DNA of 64,000 bases from Alphaproteobacteria bacterium (GTDB taxonomy: Bacteria; Pseudomonadota; Alphaproteobacteria; GCA-2731375): assembly GCA_965238305.1 (NCBI GenBank), contig CBDEHK010000001.1:893717-957716 (forward strand), written 5' to 3'. Both the position numbers and the translations under genes were made by a program. Within the stretch, counting starts at the first letter, position 1, and each line of letters opens with the position of its first letter. Below are positions 16,077-35,571 of this stretch, in pieces. The notes under the pieces are model-generated. The model was not told where the DNA came from. It did not search any database and worked only from the letters and a program-made list of their open reading frames with translations.

Positions 16077-16243
16077 ACGCTAATATCGATCTGTTTTGCG
16101 AAGATATAGAATTAATTCGTGAACATATATAGGGGCGAACAGATGCCGTCGACAGTAGATTGGATACTAGTTGTTTACTCAGTCAACGCGGCAATTTATA
16201 TACGAGACCAAATCAAATGATCACGCGGAAAAAGACCACATTC

Positions 16244-17047
16244 ATGGCAAGCAAAATTTTCGGCATCGGGCTTTCGCGAACAGGCACCTCCACCTTGATT
16301 AATGCTTTTGGCGTACTTGGGTACAAAGCCATCCATTTTCCGTTTCGCGCGGACGATTTTGACACCCATGAAGCGGCCGCGGACACACCGGTGGCGGCGC
16401 GCTTTGTTGAACTCGACAAAATATATCCGGGCAGCCGATTTGTTTACACCACCCGTGATTTGGAAAGCTGGTTGGCTTCGTGCGAGCGCTTTTGGGCCAA
16501 ACGGCAGGTGATTTTTGATCGCTCTGATTTCGTCAGCGACATGCATCGGTATCTTTACCAGACCACCACCTATGACGCAGATAAATTTGCCGCGGCTTAT
16601 CGACGACACGATAGCCGGATACGCGAATATTTTGCCACTCGACCAGACGATTGGCTGGAGTTTGATATTTGTGGCGGCGCCGCGGAATGGCCTCCACTAT
16701 GCGATTTTCTCGGTCGCGAACGGCCATCCTTGCCGTTTCCATGGTCGAATAGAGGCGATATCATCGATCAAATGTTAATTCGCGCGCTGCACGTTCTGGA
16801 CGATGTGGAACTGGTGGGTCGAATTACCAATGTTTCGCCGGTCCATCTCAAGAAATTGACCAATTCTAATGGTTATGCAGATCACGACGTCAAGACGATT
16901 TTGGCTTATGACGATGGCGCCGAGACGGCCTATTTGGCCACCCGCTTATGCCAAGGCGTAGGCGGTGCGGCGGCGGCGGCGGAGACTTTTGGTTTCGATC
17001 AAGAAAAACTAGAAATCAGTGTTGAATTCGTCAATGCTCGCCACTAA
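16244..17047 (+). CDS. Sulfotransferase family protein
   Basis: KIFGIGLSRTGTSTL, YPGSRFVYTTRD..SW..S, WPPLCDFLG, PFPWSN. Confidence 0.85.
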   Translation: MASKIFGIGLSRTGTSTLINAFGVLGYKAIHFPFRADDFDTHEAAADTPVAARFVELDKIYPGSRFVYTTRDLESWLASCERFWAKRQVIFDRSDFVSDMHRYLYQTTTYDADKFAAAYRRHDSRIREYFATRPDDWLEFDICGGAAEWPPLCDFLGRERPSLPFPWSNRGDIIDQMLIRALHVLDDVELVGRITNVSPVHLKKLTNSNGYADHDVKTILAYDDGAETAYLATRLCQGVGGAAAAAETFGFDQEKLEISVEFVNARH

Positions 17048-17054
17048 TTGGCCG

Positions 17055-17070
17055 TTAACCATCTGTTAAC
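17055..17070. promoter_or_regulatory. CtrA-type box upstream of RTX gene 1
   Basis: TTAA-CCATCTG-TTAAC = TTAA-N7-TTAAC. Confidence 0.6.
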
Positions 17071-17330
17071 TACATAATTTTGTTCACTTTCTTTGGTTTG
17101 TTGCATTATTATCACAAAATACCCACCTATCGCCAAATAATCCCCATTTCGCCTGACAATTGAACTTGCATTATAAAAACGATCAGGTATCTTCCAAGTT
17201 GGCCTTTGGGGGGAGCTCCCGGGCGAAGTGTATTTCGGTTTGGCGGCGCGAGGATCATATCTCTCGCGGGAGCTGAGCCAGGAATACCGAAGTAGATTTT
17301 GAAGCAACTGCAAATTTTGGAGTAAATTTT

Positions 17331-19127
17331 ATGGTTACAACAGTAAACGGCTCAGATCTTTCTGACGCCATTTCGCTATCCGGCGACACCGCTTATGAAG
17401 CCAACGGCATGGGCGGCGACGATACCTTCACAGCAACAGCCGCGAATTTCGGTGCGGCGACGATTAATGGTGGCACTGGCGATGACAGCGTCTATCTGTC
17501 GACGGGTACCTTGCTTGCCTACGGCAATGAAGGCGATGACGATATCTATCTTGCTAACGGTGATGCCGACGTCTATGGCGGTCAGGGTAACGACGACATA
17601 TCTGTAAACAACGGTTCTGGTACCCTTCAGGGTAACAAGGGCGATGATAACATCACCGCCAATAACTGGGCCGGCGCGATTTCCGGCGGCACCGGTGCGG
17701 ACTATATTAATGCTAATGGTACCGGCAATTTTGCGCTCGATGTCGATGGCGGTGCCGGCAACGATACCTTTACGATTGCCGGTGTTGTGGGTCTTAATCT
17801 GACCGGCGGCGCAGGCGATGATAATATCATTGCTGGTGGCACCGGTGGGTCGATTTACGGTAACCAAGGTGACGATATTATCACCGTGAACGATACCGCA
17901 GCCAGCGTATATGGCGGTCAGGGCAACGATGTTATTGCAATTACGGCAAACTTATCTGGCGATCTACAGGGTAATAAGGGCGATGACAATATTGTTGCGA
18001 TCAATGTTGTCGGCGATATTTCGCTGGGCACCGGCGACAATATTCTTTCCGCCGTCAACGTAACCGGCGACATTAGCGGTGCTGAAGGTAATGACGACAT
18101 CACCGTCGCCAAGTTGGTGGGTGATGCCGACCTGGGTGACGGCGACAACACCCTCGCAGCCAATACGTTGACCGGTAATGTCTTGGGCGGTGCTGGTGAC
18201 GATTCGGTTGATATCGCTGCCAACGTGGTTGGCGATATCGATCTAGGTGACGGTGCGAATACGCTGACCGTCGCAGGCAAGATGACCGGCGATGTTGCCG
18301 GCGGTACCGGTGTTGACGCGGTGCAGATTGCGGGCGCTTATTCGGGCGATGCAATGCTCGGCGATGAGGCTGACTTTTTTACCGCCTCCAACGCTTTTGC
18401 CGGTAATCTCCACGCTGGTGCCGGTGATGATAGTTTGAATCTTGGAACGCAAGTCAGCGGTGCTGTCTACGGCAACCAAGGCGACGATACTATAATCGCT
18501 TCGGTGACAGGCACTAATTCGCTTGGGATTTATGGCGGTCAAGGCAACGACGTGATCACGGTGCAAGGTGCCGGCGATGCGGTCGTGCATGGCAACAAAG
18601 GCGACGATGCCATTAATATCGTTGCCGGCAGCCAAGAAGTGCATGGCGGCAGCGGCGCGGATGTCATCGGCGATACCGGTGGCGGCGCCCAAGTCGTTTA
18701 CGGTAACCAAGACGGTGACATGATCTCTCTGGGCTCTGGTGCCGATACGGTCTATGGCGGTCAAGGCGATGACACGATCGTTCACTCCACCGCAGGTGGC
18801 AGCGACGTGCTCTATGGTAACAAGGGCGCTGATTTGTTCTCGGCTGCCGTGGTGACCGTGGCTGATTCAAAAGTCACTGCCGGCGGGGACTTTACGATTG
18901 GCGACTTCTCAACCGAAGACACACTTCTCATTGATGGTGGCGGCACGGGCGCCTCTTTGGTGACCGTGAATATGATCGCGGTGGCCGATGGCGGCTCGAC
19001 CGGGACGGCGGGTGATGTAACCCTCGCCTTTGCGACCGGCACGATTACCCTGGAAGGCATCGGTGATGGCACTTTAACCGACTTGTTCGCGTTGGCGGCA
19101 GCAGGCTACACGATCACGCTTGCCTAA
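17331..19127 (+). CDS. RTX-type Ca-binding beta-roll surface protein, paralog 1 (S-layer candidate, T1SS substrate)
   Basis: GGxGxD nonapeptides throughout, no Sec signal, T1SS downstream, GGAG RBS. Confidence 0.88.
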   Translation: MVTTVNGSDLSDAISLSGDTAYEANGMGGDDTFTATAANFGAATINGGTGDDSVYLSTGTLLAYGNEGDDDIYLANGDADVYGGQGNDDISVNNGSGTLQGNKGDDNITANNWAGAISGGTGADYINANGTGNFALDVDGGAGNDTFTIAGVVGLNLTGGAGDDNIIAGGTGGSIYGNQGDDIITVNDTAASVYGGQGNDVIAITANLSGDLQGNKGDDNIVAINVVGDISLGTGDNILSAVNVTGDISGAEGNDDITVAKLVGDADLGDGDNTLAANTLTGNVLGGAGDDSVDIAANVVGDIDLGDGANTLTVAGKMTGDVAGGTGVDAVQIAGAYSGDAMLGDEADFFTASNAFAGNLHAGAGDDSLNLGTQVSGAVYGNQGDDTIIASVTGTNSLGIYGGQGNDVITVQGAGDAVVHGNKGDDAINIVAGSQEVHGGSGADVIGDTGGGAQVVYGNQDGDMISLGSGADTVYGGQGDDTIVHSTAGGSDVLYGNKGADLFSAAVVTVADSKVTAGGDFTIGDFSTEDTLLIDGGGTGASLVTVNMIAVADGGSTGTAGDVTLAFATGTITLEGIGDGTLTDLFALAAAGYTITLA

Positions 19128-19149
19128 ACCAACGAACGCAGTTGCTTCG

Positions 19150-19179
19150 AAAGGGCCGGGGATTTCCCCGGCCCTTTTT
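19150..19179 (+). terminator. Rho-independent terminator
   Basis: AAAGGGCCGGGG-ATTT-CCCCGGCCCTTTTT. Confidence 0.9.
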
Positions 19180-19200
19180 CTTTGTTCGGACTACATTTTG

Positions 19201-19216
19201 TTAATCTTGCGTTAAC
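19201..19216. promoter_or_regulatory. CtrA-type box upstream of RTX gene 2
   Basis: TTAA-TCTTGCG-TTAAC(CAT). Confidence 0.6.
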
Positions 19217-19286
19217 CATCTCTTTGGGCGATAATTTCGACCGAATCGAATTAGTTGCTGCGGCTTCATAAAACGGGGAAAATTCC

Positions 19287-21095
19287 ATGGTTACCACAGT
19301 TAACGGCTCAGACCTTGACGATTTGATCACATTATCCGGCGATACCGCTTTCGAAGCCAACGGCATGGGCGGCGACGATACTTTTGTTACCACGGCCGGT
19401 AATTACGGCGCCGCGACGATTACCGGCGGCACCGGCGATGATAGCGTCGATATCGGCACCGGCGATTTGTTGTTTTACGGCAACCAGGGCGCCGACGACC
19501 TATATATCGCCAGCGGCAATGTCTCTCTATTCGGCGGGCAGGGTAACGACATCATGGAAGTTCATACTTCCGGTTCGGGCGTCATCTACGGCAACAAGGG
19601 CGATGACGACATCATCGCCATCAATTGGGCTGGCGACGTCTTCGCCGGCACCGGCGACGACAGCGTCACCGTGACCGGGGTCGGTAATTTCGCTGTCCAT
19701 GTCGATCTCGGCGACGGCGACGACACGTTCTTCGCCTCCGATCACGGCAATCTCAACGTCGTCGGCGGCAGCGGCGACGATTCCATCAGCCTCGACAACA
19801 ATGTCGTCAACGCGGTGGTCTATGGCAACCAAGGCCATGACAGCATTTATGCCCTTTCCAACAGCGCCACGACGATCTTTGGCGGTCAGGGCAACGACAC
19901 CATCTTCCTGAGCGGCGGTTCCTTCACCGGCGATTTGCACGGCAATAAGGGCGATGATTCAATTACGGCGGACACCATTGTCGGCAATGTCAATCTGGGG
20001 ACCGGCAATGATACGCTCTACATGACCGGCGACCTGACCGGTGATTTGATGGCCGGCAGCGGCAATGACAGCGTTTACAATAACAACGATTCTATCAATG
20101 GTGATGTCGACCTTGGTGCGGGCGATGACACCTTGAGGGCCGATCATATCAATGGCAATGTTACCGCTGGCGCTGGCAGTGACAGTGTCTGGTCCGACCA
20201 AGGCACGGTCGGCGATGTCGATCTGGGTGACGGCGACAATCTGTATTTCGTCCACAACAACAACCACACCGGCAATATTACCGCCGGTTCCGGCGCCGAC
20301 AGTGTCGGCATTTCAACTGGCTCCATTGTCGGCGATGTCGACCTCGGTGCTGGCAATGATACCTTAAATGTTGGCGCAGGGCTTACCGGCGAAGCGTTTG
20401 GCGGCGAGGGCGAAGACACCCTCCGGGCCGGATTTTTGGACGGCGCCGTCTATGGCAATCAGGGCAACGACAGCATCACCCTGGGGGCCAGCGGCACCGC
20501 CGAGGCGGCAGCCTATGGCGGTCAAGACAACGACATATTTTATCTCTTTGGCACCGGCACCGCCACCGCCTTCGGCAACAAGGGTGATGATTCGATGTTT
20601 CTGGATACCGGCGACCATATCGCCCATGGCGGCAGCGGTGCCGACACTATCCTTGCCGGCAGCGGCGCCAGTCTGATCTACGGCAACCAGGACGGCGATA
20701 GGATCTCCGCCGGTGGCGGCAACGATACCATCTATGGCGGTCAGGGTAATGACACTATCATTCATACTACGACCGGCGGTAATGAAGTGGTCGCCGGCAA
20801 CAAGGGCGCTGATCTGTTCATGGCGTCGTTCAATAATACGGCGGCATCGGTGACCGGTGGCGGGGATCTGACGATTATGGATTTCTCCACCTCGGATACC
20901 CTTAATATCACCGGCACCAGCGGTGGCGGGGTGACGGTGAATATGGTTGTCGTATCGGAAACCGGCACGGTCGTCGGTGGTGATGTTCTGTTGGTTATGG
21001 GCGCGGTGACGATCACGTTGGAAGGCATTGGCGACGGCACCATGAACGATCTGTTCGATCTGGCGGGCGCAGGTTTCACGATCACGCTGGCCTAA
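19287..21095 (+). CDS. RTX-type Ca-binding surface protein, paralog 2
   Basis: Same N-terminus MVTTVNGSDL and C-terminus TITLEGIGDGT...TITLA; RTX repeats. Confidence 0.88.
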   Translation: MVTTVNGSDLDDLITLSGDTAFEANGMGGDDTFVTTAGNYGAATITGGTGDDSVDIGTGDLLFYGNQGADDLYIASGNVSLFGGQGNDIMEVHTSGSGVIYGNKGDDDIIAINWAGDVFAGTGDDSVTVTGVGNFAVHVDLGDGDDTFFASDHGNLNVVGGSGDDSISLDNNVVNAVVYGNQGHDSIYALSNSATTIFGGQGNDTIFLSGGSFTGDLHGNKGDDSITADTIVGNVNLGTGNDTLYMTGDLTGDLMAGSGNDSVYNNNDSINGDVDLGAGDDTLRADHINGNVTAGAGSDSVWSDQGTVGDVDLGDGDNLYFVHNNNHTGNITAGSGADSVGISTGSIVGDVDLGAGNDTLNVGAGLTGEAFGGEGEDTLRAGFLDGAVYGNQGNDSITLGASGTAEAAAYGGQDNDIFYLFGTGTATAFGNKGDDSMFLDTGDHIAHGGSGADTILAGSGASLIYGNQDGDRISAGGGNDTIYGGQGNDTIIHTTTGGNEVVAGNKGADLFMASFNNTAASVTGGGDLTIMDFSTSDTLNITGTSGGGVTVNMVVVSETGTVVGGDVLLVMGAVTITLEGIGDGTMNDLFDLAGAGFTITLA

Positions 21096-21117
21096 AACAA
21101 CGAACGCAGTTGCTTCG

Positions 21118-21149
21118 AAAGGGCTGGGAGAAATCCCGGCCCTTTTTTT
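21118..21149 (+). terminator. Rho-independent terminator
   Basis: AAAGGGCTGGGA-GAAA-TCCCGGCCCTTTTTTT. Confidence 0.9.
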
Positions 21150-21420
21150 GTTTTTTTAGTCATTATGGTTAAACTTCAAACTTCACCAAATCTCAACCTT
21201 ATTACGCATATGAATCAATTTTTACGAGTGTATTTGACGCGTTGCTTTATCCGCACTCATTAGTAAAAAGTAATGTAAAATTAAGCAGTTACAACAATAT
21301 ACGAAATTAAGCTTGATCATTAACCATATCCCGATCATACTGCCAGCGATTCAATTTGTGCTGGTGGATTGGGCGTGTTGCCGTTTCCGCAAAGTTTAAT
21401 AGAAACCGGAGAACAATAAT

Positions 21421-23232
21421 ATGGTTACGACAGTTAACGGCTCAGACCTTGCTGATCTCATTACGCTAGCCGGCGATACGTCTTATGAAGCCAACGGCAT
21501 GGGCGGCGACGATACATTCGTTACGACGGCGGGGAATTTTGGCGCGGCGACGATTACCGGCGGCACCGGCGACGATTCGATTTCTTTGGGGACCGGATCG
21601 GCGCTTATTTATGGTAATGAAGGCGACGCCGATATTTATGTTGATGAAGGCGACGCCGATATTTATGGCGGCCAAGGCAACGACACAATTTCGATATCGA
21701 CCGGTGCCGGCACTCTGCAGGGCAACAACGGCGATGACAGCATCAACGCATGGGTTTGGAATGGCGATATATCTGGTGGCGCTGGCGACGACGTTATTGG
21801 CGCGTCTTCGACCGGCAATTTTTCACTTAATATAAGCGGTGGCGATGGCGCCGATAGTGTCCAAGTCTGGAACGCTGCGGCGGTTGAAGTGACCGGCGGC
21901 ACTGGTGACGACACCATTAAAATCAACAATACAGTCGACGACGCGACGGTTTACGGTAATCAAGGTAATGACACCGTCCTACTGGAAGCCATATCTGCAG
22001 TCGCGGTTTTTGGCGGCCAGGGCAATGACGTAATTGCAGCTACTGGTAAGCTCACCGGCGATATTTTTGGTAACAAAGGTGACGATGATATTGATGTTCT
22101 TGCCGTTGTCGGCAACATCGATTTGGGAACGGGTGACAATTTTCTTACCGCGGTGGGCAATGTAACCGGCGACATAAGCGGTGCTAGCGGTGCCGATTCT
22201 GTCGACGTGCAAGGCAAATTAGTCGGCGATGCCGACCTGGGCGATGGCGACAACACCTTCAGAGCCAATACCATGACCGGTAACATTACGGGCGGTGCTG
22301 GTGCCGATGCGGTTAATATTGACACGGGCAAAATGGTTGGCGATGTCGATCTGGGCGACGGCGCCAATAAGTTGACCGTCGCAGGCGCGATGACCGGCAA
22401 TTATTCCGGCGGTACCGGTGTTGACGCCGTGAAAATCGTGGGCGCTTACGCGGGCGATGTAATGCTGGGTGATGGTGCTGACGTATTTACCGCGAGCAAC
22501 GTTTTTGCCGGTAATCTCCATGGTGGTGCCGGTAACGATGTCCTGAAACTCGGAACGAACGTTAGCGGTGCCGTCTACGGTAACCAAGGCGAAGATATTA
22601 TCACGGGCACGGCGACAGGCACTAATTCGTTAGGAATATATGGCGGTCAAGGCAATGATGACATCGGTGTCGGTGGTGCCGGCAATGTTGTTGTGCATGG
22701 CAATAAAGGTGACGACTTAATCGGAATCTTTAACGGTGACCATGAAGCGCATGGCGGCAGCGGTGCGGACAATATTATCGATGGCAGTGGTGCCGCGCTT
22801 ATCTACGGTAACCAGGACGGCGACATGATTGATGCCGGTGCTGGTAATGACATGATCTTTGGCGGTCAAGGCGACGATACCATCGTTCTCGGCAAGTCAG
22901 ACGGCACCGACATGCTTTATGGTAACAAGGGCGCTGATTTGTTCTCGGTTACCGTGGCGACGACAGGCAATGTAGCAGTTACTGCCGCTGGGAAAATTAC
23001 GATTGGCGATTTCTCAACCGAAGATACGCTTCTGATTGATGGCACCGGCGCGAGCAACGCGTTGGTGACCGTGAATATGATCACAGTCGCCGATAGCGGA
23101 AAGACTACAGCCGTGGGTGATGTAACCCTCAGCTTTGCGACCGGCACCATCACCCTAGAAGGCATTGGTGATGGCACCTTGACCGATCTGTTTGCCCTCG
23201 CTGGGGCGGGCTATACGATTACGCTGGCGTAA
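21421..23232 (+). CDS. RTX-type Ca-binding surface protein, paralog 3
   Basis: Same termini and repeat architecture; GGAG RBS. Confidence 0.88.
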   Translation: MVTTVNGSDLADLITLAGDTSYEANGMGGDDTFVTTAGNFGAATITGGTGDDSISLGTGSALIYGNEGDADIYVDEGDADIYGGQGNDTISISTGAGTLQGNNGDDSINAWVWNGDISGGAGDDVIGASSTGNFSLNISGGDGADSVQVWNAAAVEVTGGTGDDTIKINNTVDDATVYGNQGNDTVLLEAISAVAVFGGQGNDVIAATGKLTGDIFGNKGDDDIDVLAVVGNIDLGTGDNFLTAVGNVTGDISGASGADSVDVQGKLVGDADLGDGDNTFRANTMTGNITGGAGADAVNIDTGKMVGDVDLGDGANKLTVAGAMTGNYSGGTGVDAVKIVGAYAGDVMLGDGADVFTASNVFAGNLHGGAGNDVLKLGTNVSGAVYGNQGEDIITGTATGTNSLGIYGGQGNDDIGVGGAGNVVVHGNKGDDLIGIFNGDHEAHGGSGADNIIDGSGAALIYGNQDGDMIDAGAGNDMIFGGQGDDTIVLGKSDGTDMLYGNKGADLFSVTVATTGNVAVTAAGKITIGDFSTEDTLLIDGTGASNALVTVNMITVADSGKTTAVGDVTLSFATGTITLEGIGDGTLTDLFALAGAGYTITLA

Positions 23233-23271
23233 CCACTGGCGTAAAATGAAGTAATTGCAGTTGCTTCATGG

Positions 23272-23303
23272 AAAGGGCTGGGAGAAATCCCGGCCCTTTT
23301 TTT
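23272..23303 (+). terminator. Rho-independent terminator, identical to that of paralog 2
   Basis: AAAGGGCTGGGAGAAATCCCGGCCCTTTTTTT. Confidence 0.9.
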
Positions 23304-23420
23304 GTTGACGTTCTTTTGCTTGTGTCGACTTGGCAAGAAGCGGTAAATATGTCCGATGTTGAGACGCCGGGACGATGGCCGCCTAGTTGTCTTTGTTGTT
23401 GGTTTGAGGAAAATAAATAG

Positions 23421-25286
23421 ATGGCAAAACGACAGGATGCGGCGCAACTCGTCCGTCAGATTGAACAGAAAATTCAAACCGGCGATCGCGCCAGCGCCCG
23501 CAAACTCTATCGCCAGATCGGCCGCCAGGTGGTCAAAAACCCGAAACTGCTGCAGCAAATCGGCGCCCTGGCGTAACAATGTGACGACTTTCGCCCGGCT
23601 ATTGAATATTGGCGTCAGGCCAGTTTGCTGGCGCCAAAAAACGCCATGCTGTTCAGTCAAATGGGCGTCGCCTGGCGCAAACTTGAACGCTTGGAAGAAG
23701 CCAAACAACAACATTTAAAAGCGGTGGCGCTGGCGCCGGAACAGGCGGTCATTCACAACAATCTTGGCAATACCCTGCGCGATCTGAAAGAAGCCGAAGC
23801 CGCCGAGCGCCATTTCCTCGAAGCAATCCGCCTCAGCCCCGAATACCATCAAGCGCATGCGAACCTGGGCAATATTTTCCTCGATCGGGAAGAATTTGCG
23901 GCAGCGGAGAAACATTATCGCCGGGCCTTGGATCTCGACAAAAGCTATCTCAGCGCTTGGGCCGATCTTGGCAATGTCTATCGCTTGCAGGATAAGTTTC
24001 CCGCCGCCATCCAATGTTTCCGCAAAGCCCTGGCAATCAATCCGAATTATGCCCCGGCCTATCTGAACCTGGCGGCCACTTTGCGACGCACCGGGCGCCT
24101 GGATGGTACCGAAGATATGCATCGCAAGGCCCTTGAGCTTGACCCCGGATTGGCGGAAGCCTGGGTGGCGGTGGCGAACGATATTCAGCAGACCGGCGAC
24201 GACGATGAAGCGGTGCGCTACTTACGCAAAGCAATGGACCTTAATCCGAAGCTGACCTCGCCCTATCTGACTCTGGCCTCGATCCAGCATATTGGCCTCA
24301 GCAAAGACGAAATCGATAGGGCGGAGAACCGCTTGACGGGCGAACAGATGAAGTCCGACGAACGCTCCACCCTGCATTTCGCGTTGGCGCGGGCCTATGA
24401 AGCAGAAAAAGAATATGATGCCGCTTTTCGGCATGCCGCGGCGGCCAACCATATCGACCACGCGTTGGTGGATTATGATGCCGAGGCCAACCGCGCCTTC
24501 ACCCAGCGCACAATGGAAATCTACAATCCGGAATTTTATGCCGCGCGACAGGATTTTGGCGTCGATGACAATCGCCCGATCTTGGTCTTGGGGCTGCCGC
24601 GCTCCGGCACCACCTTGGTGGAGCAGATCCTGGCCAGCCATCCGGAGGTGTTTGGGGCGGGCGAATTGGTGGATTTTCCCGATGCGCAGAAAACCATCGC
24701 CGCAACCTTGGTAAAGCCGAAGACCGGACCGGATTTTGTGTTTGATTTGACGGCGGGAAATGCGGAAGAAATCGCCTTTGAATACCAAAGGTTATTACGG
24801 ACCCGAGATGAAAATTCACCGCGCATCACCGACAAACTACCGTTCAATTTCCGCCAGCTCGGGCTATTTCATCTGTTGTTTCCAAAGGCCAAAATTGTCC
24901 ATTGCCGGCGCGATCCCCGGGACGTGGCGATTTCATGCTATTTCCTGAAATTCACCAAACCGATATCTTTTGCTTACGATCTCAACGATTTCGCAACCTA
25001 TTACGAGCAATATTTACGCTTGATGGAGCATTGGAAAAGCCTATTCCCGGACGCGATTTACGATATTCGCTACGAAGAGCTGGTCGAGAATAAGGAGCAG
25101 AAAACCAGGGAAATGATCGATTTTGTTGGTCTACCTTGGAACGATAGCTGTTTGGACCACCAGAATACCCAACGCGAAATCAAAACGGCAAGCAGCTGGC
25201 AGGTTAGGCAGCCGGTTTACAAAACCTCTGTCGAACGCTGGCGGCGCTATGAAAAACATATTGAACCAATCCTTCATCTGCAATAA
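23421..25286 (+). pseudogene. TPR-repeat sulfotransferase with in-frame TAA at codon 52 (23574-23576); intact downstream ORF 23625..25286
   Basis: GAGG-preceded ATG 23421 is in frame with the ORF; TPRs, GLPRSGTTLVEQIL, DKLPFNF, TASSWQVRQP. Confidence 0.65.
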
Positions 25287-29874: not shown

Positions 29875-31671
29875 ATGAGCGAAGCTTCGATGACCCTAGG
29901 CGCTGCGATACGTACGGGGCGAACGGAATTTTGGGTTGCTTTTGTGCTCAGCTTTTTCATCAATATGCTAATGCTGACAATGCCGCTTTATATGATCCAG
30001 ATTTTCAGCCGGGTGTTGATGAGCAACAGTAAGGAAACCCTTTTTGTCCTGACTGTTGCGGCTCTCGGTGCCCTGGTCTTGATGGGTGTGTTGACGTCGC
30101 TGCGCGGCCGCTTATTGGCGCGCTGGAGCGCTAAGGTGGATACCCATCTGGGCGAACGGGTCCATGCGGCACTGGTTCAGCGTGCCTTGTTGAACCATTC
30201 CGGCCGCAATGTGCAGTCGCTGCGGGATCTGTCGCAAATTCGCAATATGATTGCCGGCAGCGATGTGCAGACCCTGTTGGACTTGCCCTGGATGCCGATC
30301 TTCCTCTGGGTGATTTGGCTGCTGCATCCCCTGATGGGCATGGTCGCGATCGCTGGCGCCTTGGTGCTGCTCGGTTTCGCCGTCTTGAACGATGTCTTGA
30401 CCCGGAAACCATTGGAAGAAGCCAATGGCGCCGCCACCAAAGCTTACGGCGCGGCGATGATGAATGTCCGCAATGCGGAAGTCATCCAAGGCATGGGCAT
30501 GTTGCAAAATGCCTTGCAAAGCTGGCGTGGATATAATGCGCAAGTGCTGGATAACCAATCGAAGGCGATGGACACGGCCGGCAATATCGCGGCGATGACA
30601 AAATCCGCTCGCCTGATGGTGCAGGTGTTGATTTTTGGCACTGGCGCCTATCTGGTGTTGAACCAGGAAATGACCGCCGGCCTGATGATCGCGGGTGTGT
30701 TTATTCTAGGCCGCGCCCTGGCGCCGGTCGAAATGTCGGTGCGGACCTGGAAGAATATGGTCTCCAGTATCTCGGCTTACCAACGTCTGACGACTTTGTT
30801 GAATAATGTGCCGGAGCAGGCGGAAACCATGACCTTGCCGGCACCAAAAGGAAAGCTGCAGGCACAGCATCTGCTTTTTATGCCCTTTGGCGCCGACAAA
30901 GCGACGGTACAGCGGGTGACATTTGTTCTCGAACCGGGCGAATCTCTTGGCGTGATCGGTCCCAGTGGCTCCGGCAAATCGACCCTGGCGAAGTTGCTGG
31001 TCGGCGTCTGGGTGCCGACCCGTGGCCATGCCCGACTTGATGGCGCCGATGTTTCAAGTTGGGACCCGAATGACTTGGGCCAATATGTCGGTTATCTGCC
31101 GCAGGACGTCGAACTATTCGAAACCAGTGTGCGTGAAAACATCTCCCGCCTGTCAGATGCGGAATCGGAGGAGATCGTTGCGGCGGCAAAAGCGGCGGGT
31201 GTCCACGAGATGATCCTGCGCCTGCCGGAAGGATACGAGACCAATATTGGTGACAGCGGCAGTCTGCTGTCCGGCGGCATGCGGCAGCGCGTCGGCTTGG
31301 CGCGGGCATTGTTCGGCAACCCGAAACTGATGATCTTGGACGAGCCGAATTCCAATCTTGATCGAGAAGGCGAGATTGCATTGATGAAAGCCCTGGCCAA
31401 CGCCAAGGCGCGCGGCTGTACCTGTGTCATCATTGCCCATCGCCCGTCGATCCTGACGAATGTCGATAAGATCATGGTGATGAATAACGGTCAGATGGAG
31501 ATGTTTGGCGATCGCGCCGACATCTTGGCAAAACTGGGCCCGCAACAATGGCGCCCGCAAGTGGTCGGTCGTAAACCCGGACAGCAAGGGGCGATCGCCG
31601 ATGACAGCGATGGACAAAAACAGCAAAAACCAGCACAGACGCCGCCAAAAGCACCGCAACAAGGCCAATAG
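29875..31671 (+). CDS. Type I secretion ABC permease/ATPase (PrtD/RsaD family)
   Basis: PLYMIQIFSRV, LLDLPW, GRALAPVE, GPSGSGKST, LSGG, LDEPNSNLD. Confidence 0.95.
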   Translation: MSEASMTLGAAIRTGRTEFWVAFVLSFFINMLMLTMPLYMIQIFSRVLMSNSKETLFVLTVAALGALVLMGVLTSLRGRLLARWSAKVDTHLGERVHAALVQRALLNHSGRNVQSLRDLSQIRNMIAGSDVQTLLDLPWMPIFLWVIWLLHPLMGMVAIAGALVLLGFAVLNDVLTRKPLEEANGAATKAYGAAMMNVRNAEVIQGMGMLQNALQSWRGYNAQVLDNQSKAMDTAGNIAAMTKSARLMVQVLIFGTGAYLVLNQEMTAGLMIAGVFILGRALAPVEMSVRTWKNMVSSISAYQRLTTLLNNVPEQAETMTLPAPKGKLQAQHLLFMPFGADKATVQRVTFVLEPGESLGVIGPSGSGKSTLAKLLVGVWVPTRGHARLDGADVSSWDPNDLGQYVGYLPQDVELFETSVRENISRLSDAESEEIVAAAKAAGVHEMILRLPEGYETNIGDSGSLLSGGMRQRVGLARALFGNPKLMILDEPNSNLDREGEIALMKALANAKARGCTCVIIAHRPSILTNVDKIMVMNNGQMEMFGDRADILAKLGPQQWRPQVVGRKPGQQGAIADDSDGQKQQKPAQTPPKAPQQGQ

Positions 31672-31683
31672 GCGAAAGTAGTA

Positions 31684-33015
31684 TTGATGGCAAAATTATC
31701 GATCGAACCAAACGAACGAATTGCCCAGCTTAATCGCAGCACCCGGCGCGTGATCTGGACCAGTATACTGACGGTCGTAGTGATCTTCGGGCTCGGCGGT
31801 TATTGGGTTGCGACGGCCAAACTAGACAGCGCGGCGATCGCCAACGGCGTGATCATCGTAAAAAGCGAGCGTAAAACGATTCAGCATTTGGAAGGCGGGA
31901 TCGTCCATAAAATATTGGTCGCTGCGGGGGACAAAGTTGCTGCTAACCAGGTGATGATACAATTAGATGCAACCAGCGCTGAAGCCAATAAAGAACTATT
32001 GCAGGGCCGCCTGTTTACGGCGACCGCCTTGGAAAATCGCCTGCTGGCCGAGCGCGACGGACATGACCAGATCAATTTTTCGGACAGTTTATTGAACAAT
32101 GATCACGACCCGGACGTCGTCGAAGCGATGTCCGGCGAAACCCATATCTTTGTTGCCCGCCGGGAAGCTTTGGCCGGTCAAACAGCGATATTGCAGCAAA
32201 AAATTGCCCAGTTAAAAGAAGAAATTCGGGGCTTGGATGCACAACAGAAAGCCGAGCAGCGACAAGTGGTCCTCATTCTCGAAGAAATCCGGGACCAGGA
32301 TTCGCTGGTCAAAAAAGGTCTGGCGCGGAAAACCCGGGTGTTGGCGTTGCAACGGCATCTGGCCGAATTGGAAGGGCAACGTGGCGAATATCTGGCCTCC
32401 ATTGCGCGGGCCAAACAGCAAATTGGCGAAGCCAAGTTGAGCATGATCGACTTGAAAAACCGGCAAATGAGCGAGGTCGTCACGACCTTGCGGGAAGTCC
32501 AAGCACGGATAGACGATACCGAAGAACGTTTGCGCGCTTCGATCGATGTATTGCGGCGAACTGAAATCAGAGCCCCGCAAGCGGGCACCGTTGCGGACTT
32601 GCAGATACACACCACCGGCGGCGTCATTCGCCCAGGCGAACGGATTATGGACCTGGTTCCGAAGGACGACGAATTGGTCATCGAAGCCGATTTGCGCCCA
32701 GAAGATATTGATGTGGTTCACATTGGCCTGCGGGCGCAAATTCGCCTGACGGCGTTTAATCGACGCTCCACACCACCGGTCGACGGTCGCGTGACCTTCG
32801 TTTCCCCGGATCGCCTGATCAACAGCGAGACCGGTTTGCCTTATTATAAGGTTGTCGTCGAAGTCTTGCCCGAGTCGTTGGAAAAATTACATGACATCGA
32901 ATTGTACCCCGGCATGGGCGCGGTGGCGTTCATTGCCACGGGTTCACGGACCGCGTTGGACTATCTGATATCTCCGATCGCCGACAGTTTTGAACGCGCG
33001 ATGCGTGAAGATTGA
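31684..33015 (+). CDS. Type I secretion membrane fusion protein (HlyD/PrtE family)
   Basis: IQHLEGGIV, IRAPQAGTV, GGVIRPGE, LYPGM, C-terminal AMRE. Confidence 0.95.
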   Translation: MMAKLSIEPNERIAQLNRSTRRVIWTSILTVVVIFGLGGYWVATAKLDSAAIANGVIIVKSERKTIQHLEGGIVHKILVAAGDKVAANQVMIQLDATSAEANKELLQGRLFTATALENRLLAERDGHDQINFSDSLLNNDHDPDVVEAMSGETHIFVARREALAGQTAILQQKIAQLKEEIRGLDAQQKAEQRQVVLILEEIRDQDSLVKKGLARKTRVLALQRHLAELEGQRGEYLASIARAKQQIGEAKLSMIDLKNRQMSEVVTTLREVQARIDDTEERLRASIDVLRRTEIRAPQAGTVADLQIHTTGGVIRPGERIMDLVPKDDELVIEADLRPEDIDVVHIGLRAQIRLTAFNRRSTPPVDGRVTFVSPDRLINSETGLPYYKVVVEVLPESLEKLHDIELYPGMGAVAFIATGSRTALDYLISPIADSFERAMRED

Positions 33016-35001: not shown

Positions 35002-35571
35002 TTGTTGATGGAAAGCGACAGAATAAAGGACGCGAATTTGATGACGCAGGTGGCGGCGGGTGACCGCCGCGCCCAGCGTCAGCTTGTCGACGCCCATCTG
35101 GGACCGATATTCGCTTTGGCCAGGCGGATGTTAAATAACACCGCACAAGCCGAAGACAACTGCCAGGAAGCCTTTTTACGGCTATGGCAAGTCGCCCCGC
35201 GTTGGCAACCGGACGCCAAAATCGGTACCTGGCTTTATCGGATTACCTATAATCTTTGTATCGACGAATTGCGCCGCCAGCGCCGTTTGTCGGACGAAGA
35301 GGCGCCGGAGCAGGCCGACCCGGCGCCCAATGCGATGGAGCAACAGCACCGCCGGGAAGTTCTTGCAACCCTGGAGGGGGAGATGGAAAAACTACCGCTC
35401 AGGCAGCGGACGGCAATCACCCTGGTGCATCATCAAGAGTTGAGTAACATCGATGCGGCAGACATTATGGAGATCAGTGTCGATGCCTTGGAATCACTGC
35501 TGGCCCGGGGGCGGCGAAAATTGCGGCTGGCCTTGCTTGCACAGAAAGAAGAGCTGATAGGAGCGCTATGA
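35002..35571 (+). CDS. ECF sigma-70 factor
   Basis: AEDNCQEAFLRLW, TWLYRITYNLCID, region 4 LPLRQRTAI...ESLLARGRRKL. Confidence 0.93.
   Translation: MLMESDRIKDANLMTQVAAGDRRAQRQLVDAHLGPIFALARRMLNNTAQAEDNCQEAFLRLWQVAPRWQPDAKIGTWLYRITYNLCIDELRRQRRLSDEEAPEQADPAPNAMEQQHRREVLATLEGEMEKLPLRQRTAITLVHHQELSNIDAADIMEISVDALESLLARGRRKLRLALLAQKEELIGAL

Follow-up and report, generated by a model that had tools for sequence, protein, structure and literature searches.

Complementarity of RTX gene 3' ends to the translation start region of a family member beside type I secretion genes

Pairing between message ends in other bacteria

To our knowledge, pairing between a 3' UTR and a 5' UTR in bacteria is known for only a handful of single genes. 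Among small RNAs, the enterobacterial CpxQ and SroC derive from 3' UTRs and have a conserved pairing region just upstream of the terminator of the parent gene, which is aimed at the start of the target. Seeds of this type are usually single-stranded, and the fragments themselves have been detected.

Four published cases are relevant here. In the icaR mRNA of Staphylococcus aureus, a 3' UTR motif is complementary to the translation start region, and it was proposed that the pairing blocks initiation and gives RNase III a double-stranded substrate (PMC3868564). In Bacillus subtilis, the highly expressed hbs mRNA has a contact between its 5' and 3' UTRs that is linked to stability and translation (PMC5737220). 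In Listeria monocytogenes, an mRNA-mRNA interaction is reported to couple the expression of a virulence factor and its chaperone (PMC8722363). Finally, work on long-range anti-Shine-Dalgarno folding shows that a ribosome binding site can be paired in vivo with sequences hundreds of nucleotides distant, which lowers expression (PMC12697547).

Here we show that the 3' ends of most genes in an RTX family are complementary in sequence to the translation start region of one member, that this complementarity is conserved in a second species, and that the predicted binding energies are favourable.

The RTX genes and a two-block complement

The window (the whole stretch of DNA that was analysed, 64,000 nucleotides) encodes three RTX proteins and a type I secretion exporter:

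17331..19127, + strand: gene 1, 598-aa RTX repeat protein, ATG at 17331
19287..21095, + strand: gene 2, 602-aa RTX repeat protein
21421..23232, + strand: gene 3, 603-aa RTX repeat protein, 68% identity to gene 1
29875-31671, + strand: type I secretion ABC permease/ATPase
31684-33015, + strand: HlyD adaptor (with the ABC gene, 29875..33015, the context that defines the locus)

Calcium-binding nonapeptide repeats are found in genes 1, 2, and 3 (PF00353 at 24.7, 46.7, and 32.7 bits, respectively; cut-off 23), and the exporter and the membrane fusion protein score well above their cut-offs (TIGR01842, 696 bits against 510; TIGR01843, 393 bits against 209). The whole source genome (G000) has 16 RTX paralogs, and by synteny gene 1 is the one of them that occupies the type I secretion locus.

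A sequence-only reading of this DNA had claimed that a motif in the gene 1 leader is complemented by a motif just before the terminator of all three genes. The four sites (leader 17297-17313; trailers 19138-19152, 21106-21120, and 23255-23268) do read that way. The match was described as a single block; that block stands, but the match is bipartite, with a second block at 17326-17338 that pairs with 23229-23247 of trailer 3. The elements are:

17297..17313, + strand: leader block 1, 5 nt before GGAG; contains the 13-mer GAAGCAACTGCAA (17301-17313) and complements the trailer motifs
17319..17322, + strand: GGAG, the gene 1 Shine-Dalgarno, unpaired in an internal loop between the blocks
17326..17338, + strand: leader block 2, made up of ATTTTA and TGGTTAC and including the ATG at 17331; complements a segment at and just past the stop in gene-3-type and long trailers
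19133..19178, + strand: trailer 1; weak hairpin 19133-19149 holding the motif (19138-19152), terminator hairpin 19149-19178, then a T run
19251..19269, + strand: look-alike in the gene 2 leader, same-sense, of the common family leader type
21101..21146, + strand: trailer 2; weak hairpin like that of trailer 1, motif 21106-21120, terminator 21117-21146
23229..23247, + strand: anti-start segment in trailer 3, composed of GTAACCA (which shares bases with the TAA stop), a bulge of 6 nt, and TAAAAT; complements 17326-17338
23246..23269, + strand: hairpin A of trailer 3; 10-bp stem and UGCA loop, with the motif (23255-23268) as loop and 3' arm
23270..23303, + strand: intrinsic terminator of gene 3; 14-bp GC-rich hairpin, then a U run

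The blocks are colinear between the leader and the trailers. When the gene 1 leader was aligned locally with reverse-complemented trailers, the scores were 30 for gene 3 and 29 for the 819461 type (0 of 500 shuffles as good). Its own trailer, with 15 bp including one G-U, scored 25 (1 of 500 shuffles as good), and gene 1 alone among 263 genomic terminator/ORF pairs has a genuine own-gene complement of at least 11 nt, at −30 from the ATG. GGAG lies in an internal loop in every predicted duplex, so that the Shine-Dalgarno is left uncovered. The leader segment 17290-17345 is unstructured (z +0.59). As the sequence-only reading held, the leaders of genes 2 and 3 have no antisense copy of the motif; the gene 2 look-alike is in the same sense, and the gene 3 leader lacks even that.

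In 8 of the 10 trailers that carry the motif (trailer 3 and those of 7 other paralogs), a hairpin of 9-10 bp has the motif as its loop and 3' arm; trailers 1 and 2 of the window hold it only in a weak 6-bp hairpin. Trailer 3 folds at −36.1 kcal/mol (z −5.5), and because hairpin A contains two U-G pairs, it should be stable on the sense RNA only.

Distribution, conservation, and predicted binding

The 11-mer GCAGTTGCTTC, with up to one mismatch allowed, has four matches in the window, all of them exact and all at the four sites above. Shuffled windows have a mean of 1.35 matches, and 4 of 100 shuffles reach four. In the whole genome the 11-mer occurs 12 times (10 forward and 2 reverse), against 4 for a backwards control. 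All 10 forward copies are in the trailers of RTX paralogs, just 5' of the terminator. Of the 2 reverse copies, one is that of the gene 1 leader and the other falls in sequence that can be read as an open, TPR-like frame. With the copies so accounted for, the motif is specific to the family, which rules out a common genome-wide repeat. The motif is present in 10 of the 16 RTX trailers and absent from 6. These 10 are of 2 or 3 sequence types, homogenised in appearance, and so have low independence. The suggestion that genes 2 and 3 might pair with gene 1 in trans agrees with trans complementarity in both species (see below), but the set of partners is wider: the better 14-nt match to the gene 1 leader is also found in 7 more trailers, which belong to an array at a distance of 80 kb.

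A lone 14-mer match is weak evidence. About 13 exact 14-mers of the 298-nt gene 1 leader recur at unrelated sites of the genome, and the two nearest the Shine-Dalgarno both match within coding frames. It is the position and the conservation of the leader/trailer match that mark it as non-random, and at the level of sequence the complementarity exceeds chance expectation. Rfam 15 has no match in the window at the gathering score; within 16900-23500, the sub-threshold matches are far below the cut-off and lie over terminators only.

Only two related genomes and one distant gene support the pattern. The one relative with the family, G001, is of the same genus and has an identical locus order (amino acid identity of 74% for ABC, 61% for HlyD, and 66% for the ECF sigma factor), and complementarity is conserved there, as the sequence-only reading would require. 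Its single syntenic RTX gene (C40) retains 13 of 13 bases of GAAGCAACTGCAA at an unchanged distance from GGAG, while the remainder of the ~300-nt upstream region cannot be aligned with that of gene 1. Three of the five G001 trailers (C41_1, C41_3, and C41_4, from the paralog array of that genome) complement the C40 leader and start codon; the match is interrupted at the Shine-Dalgarno by a gap of 7 nt, exactly the nucleotides holding GGAG. Their alignment scores are 27, 30, and 22 (0, 0, and 2 of 500 shuffles as good), and the near-continuous match is 28 of 30. The 13-mer begins at its 5' end with GAA, which is partnerless in the known G001 trailers, where only about 10 of the 13 bases are paired. 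By eye, there are two apparent compensatory differences: the start ATGGTTAC with trailer GTAACCA in G000 corresponds to ATGGTCAC with GTGACCA in G001, and TAAAAT/ATTTTA in G000 corresponds to TAAC/GTTA in G001.

Binding energies were predicted with RNAcofold, with competing self-structure included, and the predicted binding of motif-bearing trailers to the gene 1 leader is strong even when the opening of local structure is paid for. With the gene 1 leader, the 10 motif trailers give −14.5 to −22.4 kcal/mol and the 6 motif-less trailers give −4.4 to −10.9 kcal/mol. Shuffled gene 1 leaders average −3.9 to −6.0 and reach −11.7 at best; 5 trailers were tested in this way, and for every one of them 0 of 60 shuffles did as well as the real leader. 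We also used 263 real trailers as a control, 253 from outside the family and 10 from RTX genes. The unrelated trailers have a mean of −6.3 (sd 2.2, best −15.5), and RTX trailers hold 9 of the top 11 ranks; the weaker RTX values (−14.5 to −16.3) are unexceptional alone because 2 of the 253 unrelated trailers reach −15.5 and −14.7 kcal/mol. In G001, the C40 leader binds C41_1, C41_3, and C41_4 at −23.4, −25.3, and −23.7 kcal/mol (0 of 60 shuffles as good). The cross-species control was unclean, as the C40 leader with the G000 809469 trailer gives −27.0. Gene 1 (row mean −13.7) and C40 (row mean −18.3) are the best-bound leaders of their genomes.

The idea that mRNA 1 closes on itself fares differently in the two genomes. 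In G000 the gene 1 leader has a complement in its own trailer, with −16.9 kcal/mol and 0 of 60 shuffles as good. But the C40 leader does not complement the trailer of its gene: the energy is −4.5 kcal/mol, and 36 of 60 shuffles do as well. In sequence and in predicted binding, only the trans version holds in both species. Among 12 distant RTX genes, 11 have no complement between their own trailer and start region. The exception is an alphaproteobacterial gene (L048) whose start region is complemented by 13 nt of its trailer (−15.0 kcal/mol, 0 of 60 shuffles as good), which hints that tail-to-head pairing may be a recurring trait of type I secreted surface proteins.

A proposed role for the trailers and its alternatives

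We propose, as the most likely explanation, that the family's 3' UTRs pair with the translation start region of the secretion-locus paralog, in trans and, for gene 1, in cis as well; we put this at a little under an even chance. Two features count against it: the Shine-Dalgarno itself lies outside the paired blocks, and in 8 of the 10 motif trailers the partner of block 1 is locked in hairpin A. The segment from stop to terminator of most family genes would be an RNA antisense element against the gene 1 start region, acting within the full-length mRNA or as a 3' fragment protected by the terminator. It would make two contacts, one just 5' of the Shine-Dalgarno and one over the start codon, which would clamp the landing site of the ribosome and lower translation, or create a double-stranded target for RNase III. 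In the trailers where block 1's complement is held in a hairpin, pairing would start at the loop (UUGCAG against CUGCAA, a core common to both species) and displace the 5' arm, which in 8 trailers is a weaker, wobble-paired copy of the leader motif. Gene 1 could also pair with its own trailer, through block 1 only. Stronger pairing is predicted for the gene 3 trailer and for those of the array 80 kb away, so gene 1 output would fall as the other paralogs are transcribed. What we infer is co-transcription of the two regions with their genes, contact between them in the cell, and the direction of the effect.

This arrangement would be like icaR in that gene 1 has a 3' UTR complementary to its own start region, although here the pairing is predicted from sequence. 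It would be unlike icaR in that icaR pairing covers the Shine-Dalgarno, whereas that of gene 1 would be looped out between the two blocks; and icaR is one gene acting on itself, whereas here the 3' UTRs would mainly belong to other paralogs, and G001 does not share the cis form. hbs, too, is a single gene in cis, and no paralog family or start-codon block is described in the available text (PMC5737220). As in the Listeria case, an untranslated region of one mRNA would pair in trans with another mRNA; two unrelated genes are reported to be coupled there, whereas here a paralog family would face one of its members. Those anti-Shine-Dalgarno elements are pyrimidine-rich mimics of the anti-Shine-Dalgarno sequence that are selected against, while the RTX pairing would spare the Shine-Dalgarno and its complement is conserved (PMC12697547). 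As in CpxQ and SroC, the RTX pairing region lies just 5' of the parent terminator and is complementary to the target start, a feature of 10 of the 16 G000 trailers and of 3 of the 5 from G001. Unlike them, most RTX trailer seeds are inside a hairpin, and the 3' fragment is putative.

A second possibility, which we consider unlikely, is that the leader motif and the trailer hairpin are independent elements built on a near-palindromic core, GCARYTGC, and that their complementarity is incidental. The hairpin would protect or shape the 3' end of the mRNA, and the leader element would do something else, for example as a standby site or a site for a protein. A single base separates the 8-nt core from the palindrome GCAGCTGC, which about 10 common-type leaders carry in sense orientation, so some of the match could simply follow from an element held in common. 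Also, hairpin A is a stable sense-strand structure adjoining the terminator, its two U-G pairs suit an RNA hairpin, and the full 13-mer is kept in G001 even though about 10 bases have partners there. However, a shared core does not explain block 2 at the start codon, the colinearity of the two blocks, the further 6 bases that match on the flanks of the core in G000, or the G001 match with its gap exactly at the Shine-Dalgarno.

Third, and again improbably, the trailers could be a functionless relic: the leader and 5' end would once have been duplicated in inverted orientation, then copied with each gene unit and homogenised by gene conversion. A reverse-complemented trailer is colinear with the leader and first codons, as a duplication would give; the array trailers are near-identical, yet the proteins have only 54-68% identity to gene 1; and, by eye, the anti-start segment partly overlaps a duplicated end of the coding region. 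But neighbouring proteins in G000 and G001 are 48-74% identical and the leader is otherwise unalignable, yet both partners have kept their complementarity, with lineage-specific differences on both sides. A neutral remnant should have decayed like its surroundings.

Finally, sites for recombination or inversion, or paired sites for one DNA-binding protein, that switch or shuffle the paralogs seem the least probable: multi-copy surface protein families often vary by recombination (the sap genes of Campylobacter fetus are an example), and exact 14-bp inverted repeats bracket genes 1 to 3 (17300-17313 and 23255-23268) as well as the 80 kb to the other array, but the repeats are short, gapped, and thus ill suited to homologous recombination, hairpin A has U-G pairs that would be mismatches in DNA, the G001 leader and trailer partners are on separate contigs, an inversion would presumably set the promoter before antisense DNA and give no new product, and no recombinase or invertase family was found by Pfam among 50 window proteins (13 + 37; ORFs of at least 150 aa). 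Assembled contigs from two runs of one sample list no strand-changing joint, though contigs drop rare variants. Inversion sites thus keep the lesser place that the sequence-only reading gave them. Its "coat switch" is unsupported, as nothing shows that these proteins form a coat or that their expression is exclusive.

Returning to pairing in trans, the tail-to-head pairing of messages may tune which surface protein is made. A broader version, about which we are doubtful, is that the 3' ends of the 16-member family form an RNA network, each mirroring the leader of the secretion-side copy minus its Shine-Dalgarno, so that transcription of the array would clamp the start and give exclusion or dosage balance without DNA rearrangement or a protein regulator. 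The locus offers a clean test system, with two short blocks, a natural comparison of two species, and 10 element-bearing against 6 element-free trailers. If the proposal is true, this would be a family-wide form of such pairing, with the 3' ends of many paralogs aimed at one member, and it would open a new way of selecting or balancing variable surface proteins.

The RTX family and its trailer motif

Three RTX genes are arranged in tandem in the window. Glycosyl- and sulfotransferase genes lie 5' of them, and 3' of them are three TPR-sulfotransferase fusion genes, followed by genes for a PrtD-type type I secretion ABC protein and an HlyD adaptor. By tblastn, the 4.93-Mb genome (G000) contains 16 paralogs of the RTX gene: 10 form a tandem array ~80 kb upstream (809-831 kb), 3 lie in the window, and 3 are singletons.

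RTX genes and trailer features (window coordinates unless G000 is given)
17331-19127: RTX repeat protein gene 1, ~600 aa
19287-21095: RTX repeat protein gene 2, ~600 aa
21421-23232: RTX repeat protein gene 3, ~600 aa
23246-23269: hairpin A of trailer 3
23270-23303: terminator of trailer 3
G000:C1:809469-831274: ten-gene RTX array, outside the window
G000, start coordinates 221868, 3823139 and 3828298: singleton RTX paralogs

Within the ten-gene array, the intergenic trailers (stop codon to terminator), promoter-like regions, and leaders are nearly identical, and the proteins are only ~54-59% identical to gene 1. Two paralogs are interrupted: the array copy at 827451-829270 by a split near 827804, and the one at 3828298 by an internal TAA. 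By eye, a promoter-like pair (TTGTCT-17 nt-CATACT) lies 5' of most array genes, with a common-type leader example at 19210-19286, so each paralog looks like its own transcription unit. Gene 3 has a similar pair (TTGATC-17 nt-CATACT, ~21313-21345, also by eye). These pairs were not among the matches of our consensus promoter scan.

The sequence-only reading had described a motif in all three window trailers that is antisense to the gene 1 leader, and its four leader and trailer sites read exactly as it gave them. With one mismatch allowed, the window contains the 11-mer GCAGTTGCTTC four times, always exactly and always at these sites (shuffled windows: mean 1.35; 4 of 100 reach four). Genome-wide there are 12 occurrences, versus 4 for a backwards control. 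Each of the ten forward copies falls in the segment from stop codon to terminator of an RTX paralog, and in eight the match extends to the full 14-mer TTGCAGTTGCTTCA. Of the two reverse copies, one is in the gene 1 leader and the other is at a site that can be read as an open TPR-like frame. Because of this distribution, we consider the motif to be a feature of the family and not a dispersed genome repeat, which had been one concern. Match length alone proves little, as about 13 exact 14-mers of the 298-nt gene 1 leader recur at unrelated sites in the genome (of these, the two that lie closest to its Shine-Dalgarno sequence are both within coding frames).

In predicted folds of eight trailers, the motif supplies both the loop and the 3' arm of a hairpin directly adjoining the terminator hairpin (for trailer 3, −36.1 kcal/mol, z −5.5). 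Pairing of the 5' arm of hairpin A involves two U-G wobbles, so the hairpin is a good one on the sense RNA only. In window trailers 1 and 2 this arm is lost, and just a weak 6-bp hairpin remains. By eye, the last codons and stop of the gene seem to be present a second time, in decayed form, in the long trailers of five array genes (819461, 823454, 825445, 827451, and 829478, G000:C1), whose anti-start segment GGTAACCAT corresponds to the GCG-TAA-CCAC end of gene-3-type genes.

Bipartite complementarity to the gene 1 leader

The reverse complement of the trailer is colinear with the gene 1 leader: the 14-mer (within block 1, 17297-17313) is followed by ~18 nt of poor match that hold the Shine-Dalgarno GGAG (17319-17322), and then by the region of the start codon. 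This second block (17326-17338) reads ATTTTA + TGGTTAC. Its partner in trailer 3 is 23229-23247, which overlaps the stop codon, and it also matches the GGTAACCAT segment in the five long array trailers. Local alignments of the gene 1 leader to trailers scored 30 and 29, and none of 500 shuffles did as well. Gene 1's own trailer matches block 1 only (score 25, 1/500 shuffles as good). The same test gave nothing unusual for gene 2 (score 16, 68/500) or gene 3 (score 13, 300/500). In gene 2 and most other paralogs, the leader is of a common type and contains a same-sense look-alike that is based on the palindrome GCAGCTGC.

Among 263 terminator/ORF pairs genome-wide, just two had an own-gene complement of at least 11 nt. 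One was gene 1, at −30 from the ATG; the other, an 11-mer, was rejected as an artefact because the real gene there is on the opposite strand.

We computed binding energies with RNAcofold, which allows each RNA to keep its own structure. (RNAduplex-style energies were discarded because they ignore self-structure and gave unrealistically long duplexes, although they did point to the second block.) The gene 1 leader bound the ten trailers with the motif at −14.5 to −22.4 kcal/mol and the six without it at −4.4 to −10.9 kcal/mol. Shuffled leaders had means of −3.9 to −6.0 and a best of −11.7, with 0/60 as good for each of five trailers tested. As a control with real trailers, we used 263 from the genome, 10 from RTX genes and 253 unrelated to the family. 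The unrelated trailers averaged −6.3 against the gene 1 leader (sd 2.2, best −15.5), and RTX trailers held 9 of the top 11 ranks, with two unrelated trailers at −15.5 and −14.7. The leader segment is predicted to be unstructured (z +0.59). Some common-type leaders also bind trailers moderately, down to −17 kcal/mol, but the best-bound leader in this genome is that of gene 1.

Conservation in a second genome of the genus

Only one other searched genome (G001, same genus, 87% complete) contains this RTX family. One of its contigs, C40, has the gene order of the window, except that one RTX gene stands where the window has genes 1-3; neighboring proteins are 48-74% identical. The conserved block (window 13018-34348 and 35002-35571) includes two GT4 glycosyltransferases, three stand-alone sulfotransferases, three TPR-sulfotransferase fusions, the type I secretion pair, and an ECF sigma factor; all of it is syntenic in G001 except for the sulfotransferase at 16160-17047. 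This gene content suggests that a sulfated glycan may be made together with the secreted RTX proteins.

The gene 1 and C40 leaders can be aligned only at GAAGCAACTGCAA (13/13), GGAGT, and ATGGT. Elsewhere among 33 genomes of the family, the exact 13-mer occurs only at two sites in coding frames (G010 and G019), and with up to one mismatch it is at background level in these genomes. (Most of the 14 one-mismatch matches in G000 are in open frames; a few may be intergenic, with nothing notable.) A second contig of G001, C41, carries a four-gene RTX array. The C40 leader is complementary to three trailers of this array over a stretch that extends from the core of the motif across the start codon and is interrupted for 7 nt, precisely where the Shine-Dalgarno sequence lies (scores 27, 30, and 22; 0, 0, and 2 of 500 shuffles as good). 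The predicted energies are −23.4, −25.3, and −23.7 kcal/mol for C41_1, C41_3, and C41_4 (0/60 shuffles as good), and C40 is the best-bound leader in G001. By eye, two differences between the genomes fall on both partners: start ATGGTTAC with trailer GTAACCA in G000 versus start ATGGTCAC with GTGACCA in G001, and TAAAAT/ATTTTA versus TAAC/GTTA. These look compensatory, with n = 2 only.

The sequence-only reading had proposed pairing in cis or by small RNAs. The comparison with G001 lends sequence support to the trans part, in that the complementarity is kept there, but the C40 leader has no complementarity to its own trailer (−4.5 kcal/mol, 36/60 shuffles as good).

We found no conserved local fold in the gene 1 or G001 leaders and no Rfam match. 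Searches for further relatives added little. A metagenome scan with protein alignment found no closer relatives, species-representative genomes gave only relatives of at most 37% identity, and of 401 genomes of the class searched with the bipartite leader pattern, the window's own was the only one to match (the list of genomes drawn did not include G001). A metagenome scan for the trailer pattern gave a single match, inside a coding frame, which we took as chance.

We also compared 12 distant RTX genes from other genomes with their own trailers. One of them (L048, 2072-4840, encoding a 900-aa RTX protein of an uncultured alphaproteobacterium) has, between its stop codon and terminator, a 13-nt exact complement of its start region that begins at the TG of the ATG and runs onward (−15.0 kcal/mol; 0/300 and 0/60 shuffles as good). 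The other 11 showed nothing. L048 also has a similar 8-nt target directly 5' of its Shine-Dalgarno sequence. In the leader of the first gene of the C41 array, CGCTGCAA and TTGTAGCG are the arms of a local 8-bp hairpin, and TCGCTGCAA is a 9-nt complement of its own trailer (19/500 shuffles as good, not significant alone).

The consensus promoter scan, which overall did no better than on shuffles, gave one plus-strand candidate upstream of gene 1 (17083-17112). An 11-mer, GTTGCATTATT, lies at 17100-17110, ~230 nt upstream of the gene 1 ATG, and recurs exactly in front of the syntenic gene of G001, ~190 nt upstream; a hand estimate puts the chance of this at ~0.02 for two 300-nt regions. As it overlaps the promoter-like match, it may represent a promoter or the site of a regulator, in which case the 5' UTR of gene 1 would be ~200 nt.

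Proposed antisense pairing and its alternatives

Our tentative preference, somewhat short of an even bet, is that the trailers work as antisense RNA elements directed at the start region of the secretion-locus paralog, acting in trans in both species and, for gene 1, in cis as well. What the analysis shows is the complementarity, its conservation, and the favorable predicted energies. Leader and trailer would each be cotranscribed with their own gene, the two RNAs would meet in the cell, and the outcome of pairing would presumably be repressive. Several observations speak against this: the pairing spares the Shine-Dalgarno sequence, most block 1 complements are held in a hairpin, the motif core is near-palindromic, three bases of the conserved 13-mer lack a partner in the known G001 trailers, the cross-species control was unclean (the C40 leader with a G000 trailer gave −27.0 kcal/mol), and the independent sample is small.

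It seems unlikely that the leader and trailer motifs are two independent elements with a shared core. About equally improbable is that the trailers are a functionless relic of an inverted duplication, kept alike by gene conversion; against it, everything around the motif has decayed between the two species. A DNA-level site is less probable still, as no recombinase was found among 50 window proteins scanned, inversion would give an unproductive product, and the partners are on different contigs in G001. Assembled contigs of two DNA runs from one sample listed no strand-changing joints, though contigs cannot reveal rare inversions. These contigs break at the repeats, and one joint that "goes back" was taken to be the other array's trailer, which is similar and lies at the far end of a contig of 80 kb.

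If the antisense reading holds, it has relatives. Small RNAs derived from 3' UTRs are a known class that the RTX trailers resemble, although the putative RTX seed is mostly structured. The proposed RTX pairing would work much like the pairing of the icaR 5' and 3' UTRs (PMC3868564), in which the Shine-Dalgarno sequence is covered as a defining feature; the RTX pairing lacks this coverage and would be mainly intermolecular. Other parallels are the hbs case (PMC5737220) and an mRNA-mRNA pairing reported from Listeria (PMC8722363). A 2025 preprint (PMC12697547) shows in vivo pairing of ribosome binding sites with sequences far away from them, which makes a long-range contact between leader and trailer plausible. 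In a narrow literature search, no such element turned up for RTX or S-layer gene families, and one may exist in print. If true, the RTX pairing would be a new variation on known UTR pairing.
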